Origin: an uncultured virus (IMG/VR IMGVR_UViG_3300023274_000001)
Lineage: Duplodnaviria; Heunggongvirae; Uroviricota; Caudoviricetes
IMG/VR virus record: IMGVR_UViG_3300023274_000001
Location: 124,698-188,697 of that record
Strand: one strand, 5' to 3'
DNA length: 64,000 nt
Below the pieces are notes generated by a model. It ran no database searches. It had not been told where the DNA came from and saw nothing but the letters and a program-made list of their open reading frames with translations. Below are positions 41,022 through 45,845 of this stretch, one piece after another (within the stretch, counting starts at the first letter, position 1; each line of letters begins with the position of its first letter). The translations under genes were made by a program, and so were the position numbers.

Positions 41022-41521
41022 CAGCCCTTGTCCCCCTTCTTCAGCTCGGCCTCGACCTGGTCGACCAGGCCCTTCGTGCCCTTGTAGACCTGGCGTCGCT
41101 GGCTGAACTCGCGCAGGGTCTCCGCGCTCTCGTGGGCCTCCTTGACGAGGCGGCGCAGCTCGTCCTCCTCGTTGGGAAGCAGCCGCCGCATGACCTCGGA
41201 GCCGTACCCCACGGTGAGCTGCCCGTTGGTGCCGTCGTCCCAGGAGACGAGCAGGTTGCCGGTGCCGCCGTGAACGCCGGTCACCACGCCGTGCTTCAGG
41301 GTGATGTAGCCGTTGTTCTTCGACTCGACCTTCGTGAAGGGGACGTTGACGGCCTTCTTCTTCAGGCGCATCACGCGGTCGATGTCGGCCAGCAGCTTGG
41401 CCCGGGTGGGGTGCTTCAGGTCCCGGCCGTCGAACTCGGTCAGCCAGTCACCGTCGTCGTTCACGCGCAGCTTGAACCAGGCTCCGGCGTGCTTGATGAT
41501 CCCGGCCTTGTACTCCGCCAT
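41021..41521 (-). CDS. hypothetical protein
   Basis: ATG 41521. Confidence 0.7.
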   Translation of the reverse strand: MAEYKAGIIKHAGAWFKLRVNDDGDWLTEFDGRDLKHPTRAKLLADIDRVMRLKKKAVNVPFTKVESKNNGYITLKHGVVTGVHGGTGNLLVSWDDGTNGQLTVGYGSEVMRRLLPNEEDELRRLVKEAHESAETLREFSQRRQVYKGTKGLVDQVEAELKKGDKG

Positions 41522-41526
41522 GCCGT

Positions 41527-41856
41527 TCACCGCCCGAACTGCGAGGCGCCGAACGGGGAGCGCTCCTCGCCCCACGGCTCGGGGTCGTCCGAGGTGTCAC
41601 GGGTGACCACGTACACCCACGTCCAGTAGACGTGCTCCTTCTTCACGGTAGGCGCCTGCTTGGCGCTCTCCACCCAGTACGTCTGGCCATCCGGCACGGT
41701 GATCCCGTCACCCTTGTGCAGGAAGGGCAGTTCGGGCAGGGCCCGGCCGCGCGCCGTGGGGGTGACCGTGATCTGGTACTGCTGAGGCCAACCGGACGAC
41801 ATGCCGGTTCGCTTCGGCAGCTCGATCACCGTGATCTCGTCGATCTCGTAATCCAC
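41527..41856 (-). CDS. hypothetical protein (family with 14741 and 20813)
   Basis: Strong purine-rich RBS, GTG. Confidence 0.7.
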   Translation of the reverse strand: MDYEIDEITVIELPKRTGMSSGWPQQYQITVTPTARGRALPELPFLHKGDGITVPDGQTYWVESAKQAPTVKKEHVYWTWVYVVTRDTSDDPEPWGEERSPFGASQFGR

Positions 41857-42001
41857 TTCTCTTCTTCCTCTCCGAGACAAGAATGCGGGGGCCGCCTACT
41901 ACGACCGCAGGGGATCTGTCTCCAGGAGAGCCGCCACGCGGATCACTGGGGATTGGCCTCGCCCTGCCCGAGCGGAGTAAGGATTTCCGCAGGCACCGCC
42001 G

Positions 42002-42074
42002 TGCTCCTGGCAGGATTCGAACCTGCGACACCCGGATCCGGAATCCGGCGCTCTATCCCCTGAGCTACAGAAGC
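42002..42074 (-). tRNA. tRNA-Arg(CCG)
   Basis: Cloverleaf; ccgga-TT CCG GA-tccgg; GGTTCGAATCC. Confidence 0.92.
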
Positions 42075-42085
42075 GTTTTCCGATC

Positions 42086-42481
42086 TCACCAGATGTCGTA
42101 CAGCATCCGGCGAGGAACCTTCTCGGCCTTTTCGTACAGCCGACGTTCGAGTTCACCCTTCGTGCGGCGCCCAGCCTCCAGCTTGCTCTTCACGTACCGC
42201 CTGTTGGCCCGTTCGTGCTTCTGGGCCCAGTAGGTGCGGCTGGAGCTGGGGGTCCAGGCTCCGGTGTAGGTCCACCAGCGAGCGGTGCGCCTTACCTTCC
42301 GGGGCTGGGGCCTGCGGCCCTGCTTCTCGGCGTCGCGGAGTTCCGCAGCGCTGTAGCGCAGGTCGTGGACCGTGTGCTCACGGACGGGGATGACGGGGCG
42401 CCCCCGCCAGTACATGCAGTACCCGTCCGGCCACTCCCGGATGTCGAACTTGCCCTTCAGGTGATGTGCCGTCTTGCCCAT
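42086..42481 (-). CDS. highly basic (R/K/W-rich) protein inside tRNA cluster
   Basis: AGGAGG RBS; 131 aa ending YDIW. Confidence 0.75.
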   Translation of the reverse strand: MGKTAHHLKGKFDIREWPDGYCMYWRGRPVIPVREHTVHDLRYSAAELRDAEKQGRRPQPRKVRRTARWWTYTGAWTPSSSRTYWAQKHERANRRYVKSKLEAGRRTKGELERRLYEKAEKVPRRMLYDIW

Positions 42482-42518
42482 CGGAATGCATCCTCCTAGG
42501 GCCGCGAATTTCGCGGAC

Positions 42519-42542
42519 CTAGGTGAAGCCGGTAGAGGTCAT
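42519..42542 (-). CDS. leader peptide MTSTGFT
   Basis: RBS gaaaggaacgaggg; stop lies in the hairpin that masks the downstream SD. Confidence 0.5.
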   Translation of the reverse strand: MTSTGFT

Positions 42543-42581
42543 GACCCTCGTTCCTTTCGTTCTTGTCGCTGCATTCCCGAG

Positions 42582-42678
42582 TGCACGGAGCAGGTATCGC
42601 ACCTGCGGAGAGCGTCCCCTCCAGGCTATAAGTGACGCGCTGCGCCCTAGGCGCCAGCCACCGTTCCACTTCCCGTGC
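42582..42678 (-). ncRNA. non-canonical tRNA-like RNA
   Basis: Acceptor GCACGGG/TCCGTGC-A and T-arm GCAGG-TGCGATA-CCTGC, no canonical D or anticodon arm. Confidence 0.55.
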
Positions 42679-42769
42679 GACCGCACTGCGCAATGCGGCC
42701 CTTTACCACCGACTGTAATTCCGACCGGGTTTTTCAGACCACGGAAGGACATGGTGTCGTCGGCACACG

Positions 42770-42842
42770 CTCTCCTGACTGGACTTGAACCAGTAACATC
42801 CGGATTAACAATCCGGCGCTCTGCCGGTTGAGCTACAGGAGA
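42770..42842 (-). tRNA. tRNA-Asn(GTT)
   Basis: ccgga-TT GTT AA-tccgg; cloverleaf. Confidence 0.92.
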
Positions 42843-42981
42843 TCGAATCTGAAATTGTTTTAGTGGGCCTCATCCCTAGCACCACGCGGCGCACCGACCT
42901 TGTTCTGCTGCGCTTCTCAACTGTCCTGGCCGTCGGGCGGATGGCGACCAGGCGGTACTCCTATCTCCGCCACGTACTACG

Positions 42982-43053
42982 CTCCCCAGCCTAGACTCGA
43001 ACTAGGACTCTCGACTCCAGAGGCCGATGGTCTGCCAATTAACCTACCGGGGA
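42982..43053 (-). tRNA. tRNA-Gln(CTG)
   Basis: tcggc-CT CTG GA-gtcga; cloverleaf. Confidence 0.88.
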
Positions 43054-43068
43054 CCGCTGTGGAATTGT

Positions 43069-43164
43069 TGGCAACCGGACGGCAATACTTCCACGCATGG
43101 GCTATCTTCGCATGTATGTCCCACCTGCCACAGTGGGGCTGCGTCAATAGCTTACCGTCCGGCC
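43069..43164 (-). ncRNA. structured RNA with 13-bp terminal stem ending G-CCA
   Basis: GGCCGGACGGTAA/TTGCCGTCCGGTT-GCCA. Confidence 0.45.
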
Positions 43165-43166
43165 GG

Positions 43167-43243
43167 TGGCCCCGGCCGGATTTGAACCGGCGAACCTCTC
43201 GTTTTTCAGACGAGCGCTCTTACGCGAACTGAGCTACAGGGCC
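43167..43243 (-). tRNA. tRNA-Phe(GAA)
   Basis: ctcgt-CT GAA AA-acgag. Confidence 0.92.
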
Positions 43244-43392
43244 TTGCACCCCTTGATGTATAGCTGGGCAGGGGCCGCCCTCCACTTGCCTCCCGGAGAA
43301 GGTTGGCTCATGGACTCGCTTTGCCTCACTCTCTGCTCCGTGGATAGCGACTTGTGATCGCGAACTCCACGAAGATCCGCCTCCGAAGCCAG

Positions 43393-43470
43393 CGCACCTG
43401 ACGGGATTTGAACCCGCGAAAATCTCCGCCTTGACAGGGCGGCGAGGACTCCAGACTCCTCCACAGGCGC
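43393..43470 (-). tRNA. tRNA-Asp(GTC)
   Basis: ccgcc-CT GTC AA-ggcgg. Confidence 0.9.
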
Positions 43471-43562
43471 ATGAACACTGTTGAATTGTGACGTAGGAGC
43501 CCCGCTTTCCCGGCCTCCGCCTTGCGGCGGGGCTCCCATAGACCATCCCGAAGGAGGTCTTG

Positions 43563-43637
43563 CCGGGGTGGAGGGATTTGAACCCCCGTCCGTCCGATCC
43601 GTAGTCGGCTGCCCCATCCGAACTGGGCCACACCCCG
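43563..43637 (-). tRNA. tRNA-Arg(ACG)
   Basis: ccga-CT ACG GA-tcgg; acceptor CGGGGTG/CACCCCG. Confidence 0.85.
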
Positions 43638-43727
43638 TTCAGCCTTTCACCCTTCGCGCCAAGCGTGACCAAGGCAGGTTCCAGGCCGACCGCATCCAAG
43701 CCCCAGGAAGCCGTGAGGATGCGGTAG

Positions 43728-43800
43728 TACGCCCTACTGGACTTGAACCAGTGACACGAGGATTAAGAATCCCCTGCTCTGCCAACTGAGCTAAGGGCGC
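43728..43800 (-). tRNA. tRNA-Lys(CTT)
   Basis: gggga-TT CTT AA-tcctc. Confidence 0.92.
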
Positions 43801-43807
43801 GCGTTCT

Positions 43808-43930
43808 TCAGTTCTGCTTGCCGTTTGTCGGGCCCCAGTAGTGGCCCGTGTGGACGTGGGTAGGGTACCCGTCCTGCTGCACCTTCTTCAGATGCCCCTC
43901 GTACGTCCGAGCCTTGCACTTGCAGCTCAC
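43808..43930 (-). CDS. 40-aa Cys/His microprotein between tRNAs
   Basis: gagaaagaagg RBS, GTG; MSCKCKARTYEGH...HVHTGH. Confidence 0.5.
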   Translation of the reverse strand: MSCKCKARTYEGHLKKVQQDGYPTHVHTGHYWGPTNGKQN

Positions 43931-44086
43931 GTTCGCACCTTCTTTCTCGTCCCGAGTTTCACAGGGACCCCTGGTTTTCCGGGACAGCGTTCCACCAGGG
44001 GTCTGCCTAGCATCCAGCCGCTTTCTGCCCTTACGGCCTTCCGCTGACATACAGCTAACGGATTATGAGTCCGCGCTGCACCTTCG

Positions 44087-44160
44087 TATCCCTGACTGGA
44101 CTTGAACCAGTGGCCTTTCCCTTATGAGGGGAGTGCTCTGACCGGCTGAGCTACAGGGAC
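44087..44160 (-). tRNA. tRNA with CAT anticodon (Met or Ile2)
   Basis: tccc-CT CAT AA-ggga. Confidence 0.88.
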
Positions 44161-44165
44161 CTGCG

Positions 44166-44238
44166 AGCCTCCGACCGGAATTGAACCGATGGCATCCGAC
44201 TTACGAAGACGGCGCTCTACCGACTGAGCTACGGAGGC
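44166..44238 (-). tRNA. tRNA-Thr(CGT)
   Basis: ccgtc-TT CGT AA-gtcgg. Confidence 0.9.
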
Positions 44239-44425
44239 ATTCGGGGAAACCGTCCTGCTACTACCGACCCTCCCGCTCCGACCGGCAGACGCTTTCCCCT
44301 GCGCAAGATGCCATCCTTGCATTCTTCGGCTCGCGAAACCGATGGCGCGGGAACTGCGGTTTCCTGGCGGAGTGGACGACGTCGTAAAGGAAAGAGGTAT
44401 TTCCAGTACGCCGCCAGGAAACCAG

Positions 44426-44500
44426 TCGGAATGACAGGATTTGAACCTGCGAACCTCTCCGTCCCGAACGGAGCACTCTCCCAAACTGAGCTACATTCCG
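44426..44500 (-). tRNA. tRNA-Pro(CGG)
   Basis: ctccg-TT CGG GA-cggag. Confidence 0.92.
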
Positions 44501-44546
44501 GTAAAGGACCCCAGGGTGACGGGGGGGGTGTAACCCCGGGGTCCAG

Positions 44547-44621
44547 CAGGGACAGCAGGATTTGAACCTGCGACACGCGGCTTTGGAGACCGCTGCTCTG
44601 GCCTAACTGAGCTATATCCCT
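44547..44621 (-). tRNA. tRNA-Trp(CCA)
   Basis: gcggt-CT CCA AA-gccgc. Confidence 0.92.
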
Positions 44622-44658
44622 TTGCCTGCCGAGAAGGTTTCCCCTCTCGGCTACAAGT

Positions 44659-44669
44659 ACTACTCTACC
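44659..44669 (-). promoter_or_regulatory. putative -10 region of the tRNA operon
   Basis: GGTAGAGTAGT, identical to 55230-55240(+). Confidence 0.5.
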
Positions 44670-44710
44670 GCAGAACTTCGCTATCTCATAGCGGTTTTCG
44701 GTGATGAGCC

Positions 44711-45358
44711 TCACCCGCGACGGAGGAAGGAGAACCCCGTTCCTGTACTCGTGCAGGTCTGGAGAGCCACCGACGCCCCGAGACCGGCCGACGGAAAGGT
44801 GCCGCCCTGGCTTCCGCGCTTCGCCCAGCCGTGGCCATACACCCGGTACGTCCCCGCCAGGGCGCCGGACGTGATGACCACCTTCCGGCCCACGGGCAGG
44901 TCGTCCATCCAGGACCAGCCCATGTAGTTGTGACCGGCCAGCGTCTTCACCCCGGCCGGGTAGTACAGCGTCAGCTTCCCGGCGTCGATGCACTTCTGGG
45001 CTGCCGCCACGGCCGAGCCGCAGAAGGTGTACCCGCTGATCCGGGTGACCGTCTCAACCGGCTTCCTCTTCGCCGTGCGGGTGCGTTCCGGCCGGGGCTT
45101 GGCGGCGGGCTTCGGCTTCACCACCGGCCTTCGGGTGGCCGGTGCCTTCGTACGGACCGGTGGGGTGAAGGACGGCCGGGGCTCCGGCTTCGGTCCTTCG
45201 ATCCGGCCGAGCGGGGGCAGCTCGATGTGCACGGAGAGGACGACCGCTGGCGCCACGGCAGGCTGACGCTCCTCCGGACTTGCCGCTCCGGCGGCTGTGC
45301 AGGTGGAAGCCACCAGCACTCCGGCAGCACCCAGCGCCAGCAGTCGTCTCCGTCTCAT
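44711..45358 (-). CDS. secreted Pro-rich protein with sortase-like C-terminal domain
   Basis: Signal peptide; LAGHN...L.VG.KV.I...Y.V...VALQTC. Confidence 0.7.
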   Translation of the reverse strand: MRRRRLLALGAAGVLVASTCTAAGAASPEERQPAVAPAVVLSVHIELPPLGRIEGPKPEPRPSFTPPVRTKAPATRRPVVKPKPAAKPRPERTRTAKRKPVETVTRISGYTFCGSAVAAAQKCIDAGKLTLYYPAGVKTLAGHNYMGWSWMDDLPVGRKVVITSGALAGTYRVYGHGWAKRGSQGGTFPSAGLGASVALQTCTSTGTGFSFLRRG

Positions 45359-45377
45359 GTCACTCCGCCTTCCCTGA

Positions 45378-45845
45378 TCACCGAACGTCGGCGATCTCGA
45401 TGTCGTAGGGCAGCGCTTTCACGGCCTCTTCGATGTCGTACTCGACGAGGTTCGCGTCGGCGTCCCTGCCGATCTTCACCTTCACCACGACCAGCAGTTC
45501 CCGGTACCGGGGCTCGGGCTCCGGCTGGGGGCTGCCCCAGCCGCGCTCCTGGAGGGCCACCAGCAGCGGCAGCTCCTTCGCCCAGGCAACCGGGTTGCTG
45601 CGGCACGCCTCCAGCCGGGCCAGCTCGCCCTCATAGGCGTCCGTCGCGGCATCTCCGCTCGGGCCGGGTCCCAGCAGGTAGGAGGAGATCAGTAGATCGA
45701 GGTGGGCCAGCGCCCGGTCGCGATCGGTCAGGTACCGGTAGACATTCTGCGCATGCCGGATGTCCATGTCGGCCACCCGGTGGATCCGGCTCTGGCCGTC
45801 CACCCAGTACTCGCCCTGGAACAGCAGTTCCCTGCGGTCCATCAC
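45378..45845 (-). CDS. hypothetical protein
   Basis: ORF track. Confidence 0.7.
   Translation of the reverse strand: MMDRRELLFQGEYWVDGQSRIHRVADMDIRHAQNVYRYLTDRDRALAHLDLLISSYLLGPGPSGDAATDAYEGELARLEACRSNPVAWAKELPLLVALQERGWGSPQPEPEPRYRELLVVVKVKIGRDADANLVEYDIEEAVKALPYDIEIADVR

Follow-up and report, generated by a model that had tools for sequence, protein, structure and literature searches.

Predicted structured RNAs between the tRNA genes of a phage related to the Streptomyces phages of cluster BM

Introduction

The stretch of DNA analyzed here (the window, 64,000 nucleotides [nt] in full) belongs to an uncultured virus of the Caudoviricetes (IMG/VR record IMGVR_UViG_3300023274_000001) and represents the right end of its 188.7-kb genome (record bases 124698-188697 of 188,697). 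It carries an array of tRNA genes, which a first-pass annotation had read as the punctuation of a single transcript, with the spacers being released as about 10 stable and undescribed small RNAs. A comparison with related phages supports this interpretation in part: as judged from their patterns of base changes, several of the spacers are structured RNAs under selection, but their number had been overstated. The best explanation of the locus is a tRNA operon of a cluster BM-type Streptomyces phage, which is interleaved with structured RNA modules and two small protein genes.

Results

The tRNA array and its relatives

The array consists of 11 tRNA genes between positions 42001 and 44621, all on the minus strand, as the first-pass annotation had stated. 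All of them are called by ARAGORN and recovered by the Rfam tRNA model (RF00005) at the gathering score (11/11):

44546-44621, minus strand, tRNA-Trp (CCA)
44425-44500, minus strand, tRNA-Pro (CGG)
44165-44238, minus strand, tRNA-Thr (CGT)
44086-44160, minus strand, tRNA-Met (CAT), 4 nt behind tRNA-Thr
43727-43800, minus strand, tRNA-Lys (CTT)
43562-43637, minus strand, tRNA-Arg (ACG)
43392-43470, minus strand, tRNA-Asp (GTC)
43165-43243, minus strand, tRNA-Phe (GAA)
42981-43053, minus strand, tRNA-Gln (CTG)
42769-42842, minus strand, tRNA-Asn (GTT)
42001-42074, minus strand, tRNA-Arg (CCG)

None of these tRNAs is encoded with its CCA end (0/11); in every case, the discriminator base is directly followed by a C and then by something other than CA. 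Neither a CCA-adding-enzyme domain nor an RNase III domain was found in the phage genome, and ARAGORN detected no cryptic tRNAs in the spacers of the window, either at 85% thresholds or with introns allowed.

The genome is related to those of the Streptomyces phages Frankenweenie, Kela, JustBecause, and Satis (cluster BM). A distant blastn search with the tRNA region matched seven Streptomyces phages over at least 80% of the region length, with identities of 87.6% for Frankenweenie and 79-81% for Kela, JustBecause, Satis, Quantum, Kradal, and EhyElimayoE. The array of Frankenweenie is located inside a long block of co-directional genes, along with those for a DnaB-like helicase, a primase, and a dCMP deaminase. 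The founders of the cluster, Satis and JustBecause, are siphoviruses with prolate heads and genomes of >180 kb, which share an average nucleotide identity of 74.4%; in the accessible part of their genome announcement, the tRNAs are counted only (PMC6687918). A full-text literature search, with supplementary files outside its scope, retrieved no paper on the spacers of cluster BM tRNA arrays.

The arrays of relatives were collected by using a 131-amino acid (aa) protein encoded within the array as anchor, yielding a set of 19 arrays from the window, five named phages, eight IMG/VR loci, and five metagenome loci (nine of the latter were retrieved via the protein, five of which span part of the array). 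The order of the tRNAs is kept throughout this set, with individual tRNAs and spacers being gained or lost: tRNA-Met is not called by ARAGORN in Kela, JustBecause, and the loci L010 and L011, tRNA-Asn is absent from the calls in L007, and tRNA-Asp from those in L011. The most distant array of the set is L009.

Four core elements are kept by compensatory base changes

Four elements were found in every array covering their position, including L009. They comprise a hairpin in the trailer of tRNA-Trp and the structures in the Pro-Thr, Asp-Phe, and Phe-Gln spacers (spacers are designated by their flanking tRNAs):

44505-44544, minus strand, Trp trailer hairpin with 14 pairs and a C-rich loop (alignment A2)
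44243-44423, minus strand, Pro-Thr element (alignment A5; coordinates from alignment columns)
44358-44423, minus strand, Pro-Thr hairpin 1
44344-44357, minus strand, Pro-Thr conserved linker
44303-44320, minus strand, Pro-Thr hairpin 2
44243-44299, minus strand, Pro-Thr compound hairpin 3
43266-43391, minus strand, Asp-Phe element, a robust nested hairpin domain plus a 3' hairpin at 43266-43280 (alignment A3)
43073-43164, minus strand, Phe-Gln element, a three-way junction with a closing stem of 13 pairs (alignment A4)

Between 95 and 99% of the base pairs of these elements are retained, with many compensatory changes. The Trp hairpin shows such changes in 6 of its 14 pairs among 12 distinct sequences, with 97.6% of 166 alignment cells being paired, compared to 28-58% after sliding the pairing partners. 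The corresponding values are 22 of 39 pairs and 96.0% of 429 cells for the Pro-Thr element (11 distinct of 12 sequences; slid partners, 35-54%), 14 of 30 pairs and 98.9% of 360 cells for the Phe-Gln element (12 distinct of 13; 26-45%), and 11 of 31 pairs and 95.2% of 310 cells for the consensus fold of the Asp-Phe element (33-54%), whose 10 sequences comprise nine distinct Asp-Phe spacers and the Asp-Arg (CCT) spacer of L009. Across the core elements, only 26-58% of the cells are thus paired in the slid-partner controls. In none of the four alignments was the actual covariation score attained by any of 500 column shuffles; however, the relatives represent few clades only, and this control therefore overstates the significance, so that more weight should be given to the slid-partner control and to the number of independent pair types. 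Conservation and covariation across related genomes had been named in the first-pass annotation as a check on its proposal, and the outcome is in its favor: counting the further elements described below, many helices are kept by compensatory changes in alignments of 7-12 distinct relatives, with the controls staying far below.

The lengths of the spacers concerned are stable, amounting to 43-48 nt for Trp-Pro, 145-150 nt for Asp-Phe, and 99-113 nt for Phe-Gln, if arrays with large insertions are set aside, namely L009 and L012 (Trp-Pro, 331 nt; Phe-Gln, 213 nt), L018 (Phe-Gln, 213 nt), and L021/L022 (Phe-Gln, 369 nt). L021 was omitted from alignment A5, as its Pro-Thr spacer measures 423 nt; the element lies there at positions 1435-1613 and agrees with the window in 148 of 181 bases. 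L021 was also omitted from A4, but a covariance model of the Phe-Gln element (R1) nonetheless located that element there. The same model yielded nine matches in 83 sources, all from this phage lineage (the sources being 81 loci, 79 of which come from the 80 listed of 99 pattern-matched IMG/VR stretches, plus the window), and found nothing in 151 genomes of the genus Streptomyces, a weak negative with 25 candidates scored per genome.

The closing stems start within a few nt of the tRNA ends. The Trp hairpin begins 1 nt past the ARAGORN end of tRNA-Trp, about 3 nt past the discriminator, and the closing stem of the Phe-Gln element begins right at the ARAGORN end of tRNA-Phe, again about 3 nt past the discriminator; in L009, about 100 nt of other sequence separate the latter element from tRNA-Phe. 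In the Phe-Gln element, loops and junctions do not change where the stems diverge among the lineages. All stems listed in the first-pass annotation recur in the minimum-free-energy folds of the spacers, but not all of them start at a tRNA 3' end: the stem behind tRNA-Arg (ACG) belongs to the second hairpin of its spacer, and that assigned to tRNA-Met lies about 80 nt behind the tRNA. In the trailers of tRNA-Trp, tRNA-Pro, tRNA-Asp, and tRNA-Phe, the same few bases follow the C behind the discriminator and open the closing stem.

An alternative nested fold of the Asp-Phe element, which is the minimum-free-energy fold in the window, shows compensatory changes in 18 of 44 pairs, with 87.7% of 423 cells being paired, and one of its helices (alignment columns 81-84 with 111-114) exhibits a coordinated one-base insertion or deletion on both strands. 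Both models share the nested hairpin domain and the 3' hairpin. A scan of covarying column pairs for pseudoknots in this element was swamped by clade structure.

As to the nature of these elements, the paired columns of the four core alignments contain 179 G.U cells versus 14 A.C cells, and several G.U pairs are invariant in all 12 Phe-Gln sequences. G.U would be a mismatch on the other strand or in DNA, so the structures must be those of RNA of the tRNA sense strand, and DNA-level palindromes are ruled out as an account of the core elements. Consistently, the folding z-scores of the sense strand are below those of the antisense strand for Trp-Pro, Asp-Phe, and Phe-Gln. Protein coding is ruled out as well, since the lengths (43-48, 145-150, and 99-113 nt) vary by non-multiples of 3, and the changes within the core elements fall in paired columns.

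Folding energies were compared to 200 dinucleotide shuffles for each of 11 non-coding segments. The z-scores are -3.99 for the leader upstream of tRNA-Trp, -3.32 for Trp-Pro, -1.46 for Pro-Thr, -2.15 for the Met trailer, -1.64 for Lys-Arg, -3.56 for Arg-Asp, -0.54 for Asp-Phe, -2.11 for Phe-Gln, +0.42 for Gln-Asn, -2.24 for the Asn trailer, and -0.07 for the Arg (CCG) trailer. Their mean of -1.88 compares to -0.25 (standard deviation 1.2) in 120 length-matched random segments of the window, 8.3% of which reach z <= -2, and the array segments fold better as a group (Mann-Whitney p = 4.3e-4). This second check proposed at first pass therefore turned out positive for the group, but not for three segments taken singly. 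Folding energy was the weaker test, because the Asp-Phe element, which is unremarkable by z-score, is among the best-conserved ones.

Searches against Rfam agree with the claim that the RNAs are undescribed, since no family matches outside the tRNAs. At gathering scores, the whole window yields the 11 tRNAs and no other family; at E <= 5, the region 41800-44760 yields only tRNAs and sub-threshold matches overlapping them, the families missing from the spacers including ribozymes, GOLLD, ROOL, 6C, and Y-RNA-like families. In the loci of six relatives, a search at E <= 1 again returned tRNAs and sub-threshold matches overlapping tRNAs, with one exception, a sub-threshold tmRNA match (25.8 bits; gathering score, 47) at L021:3594-3719, which lies in the Asn trailer of that relative and has no counterpart in the window.

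The location of these trailers directly 3' of phage tRNAs lacking CCA raises the question of whether some are self-cleaving ribozymes forming the tRNA 3' ends, for which the HDV-like theta ribozymes of gut phages offer a precedent (PMC10879173, in the part accessible). However, none of the ribozyme families of Rfam 15 matches at E <= 5, the helices supported by covariation are fully nested and pair the first bases with the last, while P1 and P2 of HDV are crossed, and the Trp hairpin is a plain stem-loop of 40 nt. Such an activity therefore seems most improbable.

tRNA-like modules behind tRNA-Met and tRNA-Asn

The trailers of tRNA-Met and tRNA-Asn contain further conserved modules, some of which resemble parts of tRNAs:

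44049-44081, minus strand, Met trailer hairpin (33 nt, 12 pairs) with a 7-nt anticodon-type loop at 44063-44069 (alignment A12)
43951-44048, minus strand, three further Met trailer hairpins in the leader of a 40-aa coding sequence (CDS) (alignment A8; coordinates from alignment columns)
42704-42765, minus strand, Asn trailer hairpin 1 (62 nt) with a 7-nt loop at 42731-42737 (alignment A13)
42679-42700, minus strand, Asn trailer hairpin 2 (alignment A13)
42582-42678, minus strand, tRNA-like cloverleaf (97 nt) with a 7-pair acceptor stem, a T arm at 42590-42606, and an A as discriminator (alignment A11)

The loop of the Met trailer hairpin equals the anticodon loop of the phage's own tRNA-Met in eight of nine distinct sequences; L010 carries CAG as the middle triplet between the same flanking loop bases. 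Where no tRNA-Met is called, the hairpin is found directly behind tRNA-Thr, with a loop of the Met type in Kela, JustBecause, and L011 and with CAG in L010. Compensatory changes affect 3 of its 12 pairs (nine sequences) and 9 of 41 pairs in the Met trailer overall, where the hairpin at 43966-44003 is nearly invariant. Asn trailer hairpin 1 has the loop of tRNA-Phe in six of seven sequences, with GCA at the anticodon position in Satis between unchanged flanking loop bases, and 9 of 26 pairs of the two Asn hairpins show compensatory changes among these seven sequences.

Compared to the tRNA family (RF00005), the cloverleaf module possesses the acceptor/T-arm half and the discriminator, but neither a D arm nor a 7-nt anticodon loop nor a score typical of the family; these arms are replaced by a long compound arm and by a hairpin of 4 pairs whose 4-nt loop is invariant. 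Its T arm is stacked on the acceptor stem, both stems covary, and 15 of 30 pairs show compensatory changes among nine sequences. The T-loop is canonical in the relatives and changed at its second base in the window. The module of the window is called neither by ARAGORN at 85% thresholds or with introns allowed nor by Rfam at E <= 5, and those of the relatives are called by ARAGORN only at relaxed thresholds, with low scores and inconsistent anticodons, and were missed by Rfam at E <= 1 in the loci of six relatives. In L009, a class-II-like tRNA occupies the position of the cloverleaf.

The last observation, together with the two anticodon-type loops, the acceptor stem and T arm of the cloverleaf, and the non-canonical T-loop in the window, may be taken to indicate that the spacers derive from tRNA genes now in decay, in an array shaped by gain and loss, and have no present function; the different tRNA contents of the relatives (no tRNA-Met in Kela, no tRNA-Asn in L007, no tRNA-Asp in L011) would fit to this. 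Neutral decay is incompatible, however, with 95-99% pairing and 11-22 compensatory pairs per element, and the core elements are devoid of cloverleaf traces; neither ARAGORN at relaxed settings nor Rfam at E <= 5 detects anything there. Decay is therefore regarded as a very improbable account of the spacers.

Lineage-variable trailers

Three spacers are highly variable in length, namely Lys-Arg (0-90 nt), Arg-Asp (22-463 nt), and Gln-Asn (17-246 nt). The trailers concerned, together with that at the end of the array, are:

43640-43725, minus strand, Lys trailer with two hairpins (alignment A6)
43494-43560, minus strand, Arg (ACG) trailer with hairpins at 43540-43560 and 43494-43538 (alignment A7)
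42880-42980, minus strand, Gln trailer with nested hairpins, alignable only with the close relatives L005 and L001
41881-42000, minus strand, Arg (CCG) trailer, extending to the next open reading frame

The Lys trailer shows compensatory changes in 4 of 25 pairs, and the Lys-Arg spacer comprises only 0-9 nt in Satis, Kradal, and L011. The hairpins of the Arg (ACG) trailer are common to the window, L001, L007, and L021 only, out of seven aligned sequences, with different inserts elsewhere. In Kela (L002:2518-2687), Satis (L003:2352-2585), and L021 (2457-2626), the Arg-Asp spacer harbors a gene resembling a tRNA, with 82-141 nt inserted in the anticodon loop or close to it, as called by ARAGORN when introns are permitted; there is no counterpart in the window. 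The sequence of the Arg (CCG) trailer is kept in six of nine lineages and replaced in L005, L010, and L009. The replacing sequence of L005 and L010, located about 100 nt behind tRNA-Arg, terminates in a motif resembling a T arm, and it may represent another tRNA-like module.

The estimate of about 10 small RNAs is therefore too high. It stands for the four universal elements and for the Met and Asn modules, but the Thr-Met spacer amounts to 4 nt, the Met-Lys and Asn-Arg (CCG) spacers contain CDSs, and the Lys, Arg (ACG), and Gln trailers are variable or missing among the relatives.

Upstream region, small genes, and other features

The remaining features of the locus are:

44662-44689, minus strand, promoter-like block with a -35-like hexamer (44684-44689), a 16-nt spacer, and a -10-like hexamer (44662-44667)
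44623-44655, minus strand, leader hairpin just upstream of tRNA-Trp
43808-43930, minus strand, CDS of a Cys/His-rich 40-aa product in the Met-Lys spacer, ending 7 nt before tRNA-Lys
42495-42523, minus strand, near-perfect palindromic hairpin (29 nt, one central mismatch)
42086-42481, minus strand, CDS of the very basic 131-aa protein, ending 11 nt before tRNA-Arg (CCG)
43481-43489, minus strand, ACAATTYMA site upstream of tRNA-Asp
43060-43068, minus strand, ACAATTYMA site upstream of tRNA-Gln
42850-42858, minus strand, ACAATTYMA site upstream of tRNA-Asn

The block upstream of tRNA-Trp is nearly invariant in 9 of 10 aligned lineages and unique in the 188.7-kb genome, and it is probably a promoter, as far as its motifs tell; a strict sigma-70 scan called no promoter-like site, this block included. 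Its -35-like hexamer overlaps a short inverted repeat. The leader hairpin shows a compensatory change between the window and L001. The motif ACAATTYMA, a post hoc choice, has three occurrences in the window versus 0.21 expected, 8-19 nt upstream of the respective tRNAs, and is kept in the relatives; it may represent either a site for a nuclease or an element of the -10 type. Three further tRNAs are encoded near the left end of the genome (C1:3048-7712), namely tRNA-Tyr (94 nt), tRNA-Ile, and tRNA-Pro (TGG; 93 nt), two of which are unusually long.

A consensus scan detected no U-tailed terminator in any of the minus-strand spacers, again in agreement with the first-pass annotation; terminator-like sites in the region 41400-45400 number four versus 2.6 expected, the only one on the minus strand being inside tRNA-Asn. 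The strong, GC-rich stems without U-tails might still serve as terminators or pause sites separating the tRNAs into individual transcription units with internal promoters, and the AT-rich and somewhat -10-like motif 8-19 nt upstream of three tRNAs would suit such an arrangement. It occurs at only 3 of the 11 tRNAs, however, sigma-70-like promoters are not called, multi-helix elements with conserved loops exceed the needs of a terminator, and serial termination would starve the downstream tRNAs, so that we consider this organization improbable.

The 40-aa CDS is annotated in Frankenweenie, Kela, and JustBecause, and its reading frame is kept at the protein level in 7 of 11 lineages; its product has no Pfam match. 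The 131-aa protein, which is also annotated in relatives, has 39 homologue clusters, 35 of which are near-full-length and come from contigs of this phage lineage (32 have exactly 131 aa). The other four represent remote Streptomyces proteins, and no tRNA lies nearby at the sole bacterial locus found for a homologue. The protein has no Pfam match, its AF2 model of middling quality (pLDDT 69.4) gives no PDB fold match with E < 1, and its look-alike clusters in the Atlas are all unnamed. Either of the two small proteins could be a partner of the neighboring RNAs. The palindromic hairpin runs with its 3' arm into the ribosome-binding site of the 131-aa CDS; its stem pairs are unchanged in all 10 sequences save one G.U, and there is one copy in the genome. 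It may serve in translation control or as a protein-binding site.

DNA of the phage is contained in 16 sequencing runs, which come from 11 studies of soil, litter, rhizosphere, and the like. The window was compared with four runs that are possibly RNA by their labels and contain small shares of the stretch, using contigs that show neither ends nor strand; gaps in their coverage carry no information. A 163-nt contig from one true metatranscriptome equals 43993-44155, spans tRNA-Met with its trailer at a depth of 3, and could be carried-over DNA, and two wastewater libraries, flagged "RNA?", contain contigs identical over 42429-42578, 42696-846, and 44075-44313, which could likewise be DNA. The other contigs of the four runs are only tRNA-like pieces of other organisms or of a relative. 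These contigs give a weak hint of transcription.

Discussion

RNase P generates the 5' ends of tRNAs, and precursors without CCA need an endonucleolytic 3' cut and the addition of CCA. We propose that the whole block would be transcribed on the minus strand, probably starting from the promoter-like block upstream of tRNA-Trp, that host RNase P would cut at the 5' end of each tRNA and probably also of the cloverleaf, and that a host 3' endonuclease would cut behind each discriminator. The latter cut is proposed because none of the array tRNAs encodes CCA, and host enzymes would have to act because the phage genome offers neither a CCA-adding-enzyme nor an RNase III domain. An RNA between two such cuts would start with bases that pair close to its 3' end, forming a long closing stem, which should protect it from exonucleases and let it persist as a discrete small RNA, comparable to RNAC and RNAD of phage T4. 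The two small mRNAs may be freed likewise, that of the 131-aa protein by cutting of the cloverleaf, which would be treated like a tRNA on account of its acceptor/T-arm half. Release by RNase P and 3' processing, followed by accumulation of the kind seen for the T4 RNAs, is thus a plausible route. Since the shape of the core RNAs is preserved, they probably do something, and we estimate the probability that RNAs of the array are released in stable form and have a function in their own right at about 0.5.

Several observations weigh against this interpretation. Among the relatives, the Lys, Arg (ACG), and Gln trailers have been lost or exchanged for other sequence, hence not every spacer can be functional. 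The Asp-Phe, Gln-Asn, and Arg (CCG) segments singly fold no better than shuffles. The exact fold of the Asp-Phe element is ambiguous, with two models being comparably supported and two pairings competing for the part outside the shared domains, and phylogeny dominates the covariation of single columns. The contigs from RNA libraries are few, of low depth, and possibly DNA. Finally, purely cis-acting elements would show selection on structure as well.

The last point leads to the view that the structures act only in cis within the precursor and are degraded after processing. They might prevent cross-misfolding of the tRNAs, offer sites for RNase III or RNase E, or block 3' exonucleases. This would account for the closing stems abutting the tRNA 3' ends, for the fact that most arrays have the elements following one and the same tRNA or else a tRNA-like 3' end, and for the AT-rich single-stranded stretches just upstream of tRNA-Asp, tRNA-Gln, and tRNA-Asn (again as defined by the motif picked post hoc), and covariation proves that pairing is selected, not a function in trans. 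On the other hand, tRNAs only 0-4 nt apart are tolerated, as seen for Thr-Met in the window and Lys-Arg in Satis, which indicates that spacer structure is not needed to separate tRNAs. Moreover, a three-way junction and a multi-helix domain of about 105 nt exceed the needs of a processing stem, loops and junctions stay invariant across lineages with diverged stems, and the Phe-Gln element lies about 100 nt away from tRNA-Phe in L009. We consider an exclusively cis-acting role the less probable explanation.

If RNAs of the array are released, they belong to a kind of RNA that is known, non-tRNA RNAs within phage tRNA clusters, while the families found here are new. According to excerpts of the cited sources, RNAC and RNAD are small RNAs of unknown role from the tRNA region of T4 (PMC3014915, PMC9697503). 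Like these, the array elements are non-tRNA RNAs located among phage tRNA genes and on the tRNA strand; unlike them, they form at least six distinct conserved modules instead of two, belong to a phage of a high-GC actinomycete host, and are known from sequence. There is no sequence likeness between them, as T4-type phages match only positions 470-621 of the query in the distant blastn search, which correspond to the Thr and Met tRNAs. Spacers of tRNA operons in E. coli yield functional sponge RNAs (bioRxiv 10.1101/2021.04.25.441314); these bacterial spacer RNAs (the 3'ETS of glyW-cysT-leuZ and internal spacers) are freed by processing and then act independently. They are Hfq-dependent and have single-stranded pairing regions and a U-tailed terminator, whereas the array elements are compact multi-helix structures without U-tails. 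Theta ribozymes, which are HDV-like, have been reported 3' of tRNAs in gut phages of Bacteroidota and Bacillota and have been proposed to form the 3' ends (PMC10879173, excerpts). They share with the array elements the location of a structured RNA directly 3' of a phage tRNA, but the Trp, Pro, and Phe trailers are nested, their 5'-most strand being paired to the 3'-most one, unlike the nested double pseudoknot of HDV. GOLLD and ROOL, described in the accessible text as non-coding RNAs of phages and prophages with unknown function and often near tRNA islands (PMC12286853), are ornate RNAs of 500-800 nt with Rfam models, neither of which matches here, while the array elements measure 40-180 nt. 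The longest non-coding stretch of the array is 287 nt.

The organization of the locus also resembles the tRNA punctuation of mitochondria, where a single transcript carries tRNAs on either side of other genes and is split into pieces when the tRNAs are excised. The 40-aa and 131-aa CDSs, ending 7 and 11 nt before a tRNA, respectively, correspond to this pattern; the differences are that the array is a phage operon in a bacterium and that the pieces set free would mostly be non-coding.

The modules mimicking tRNAs are unusual. One may speculate that the array is a counter-defense or host-takeover island delivering tRNA mimics, which would be freed by the tRNA-processing enzymes of the host. The mimics would comprise the two hairpins framed as anticodon loops (with CAU changed to CAG and GAA to GCA in some relatives), the cloverleaf, and other compact folds, and they would titrate host factors binding or cutting tRNAs, such as anticodon nucleases, toxins of toxin-antitoxin systems, modification enzymes, or synthetases. 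We regard this specific role as unlikely.

Annotations of phage tRNA clusters usually consist of the tRNAs and of gaps termed "hypothetical". In the lineage described here, whose founders share only about 74% nucleotide identity (PMC6687918, accessible part), at least six gap elements are kept by compensatory evolution. They would represent new families of structured RNA whose biogenesis may be built in, with tRNA processing excising them. The lineage is accessible to experiment, as S. lividans supports the growth of Satis and JustBecause, and it bears on the old question of what RNAC and RNAD do in T4, while the tRNA-like and anticodon-arm-like modules suggest a link to tRNA-directed defenses of the host.

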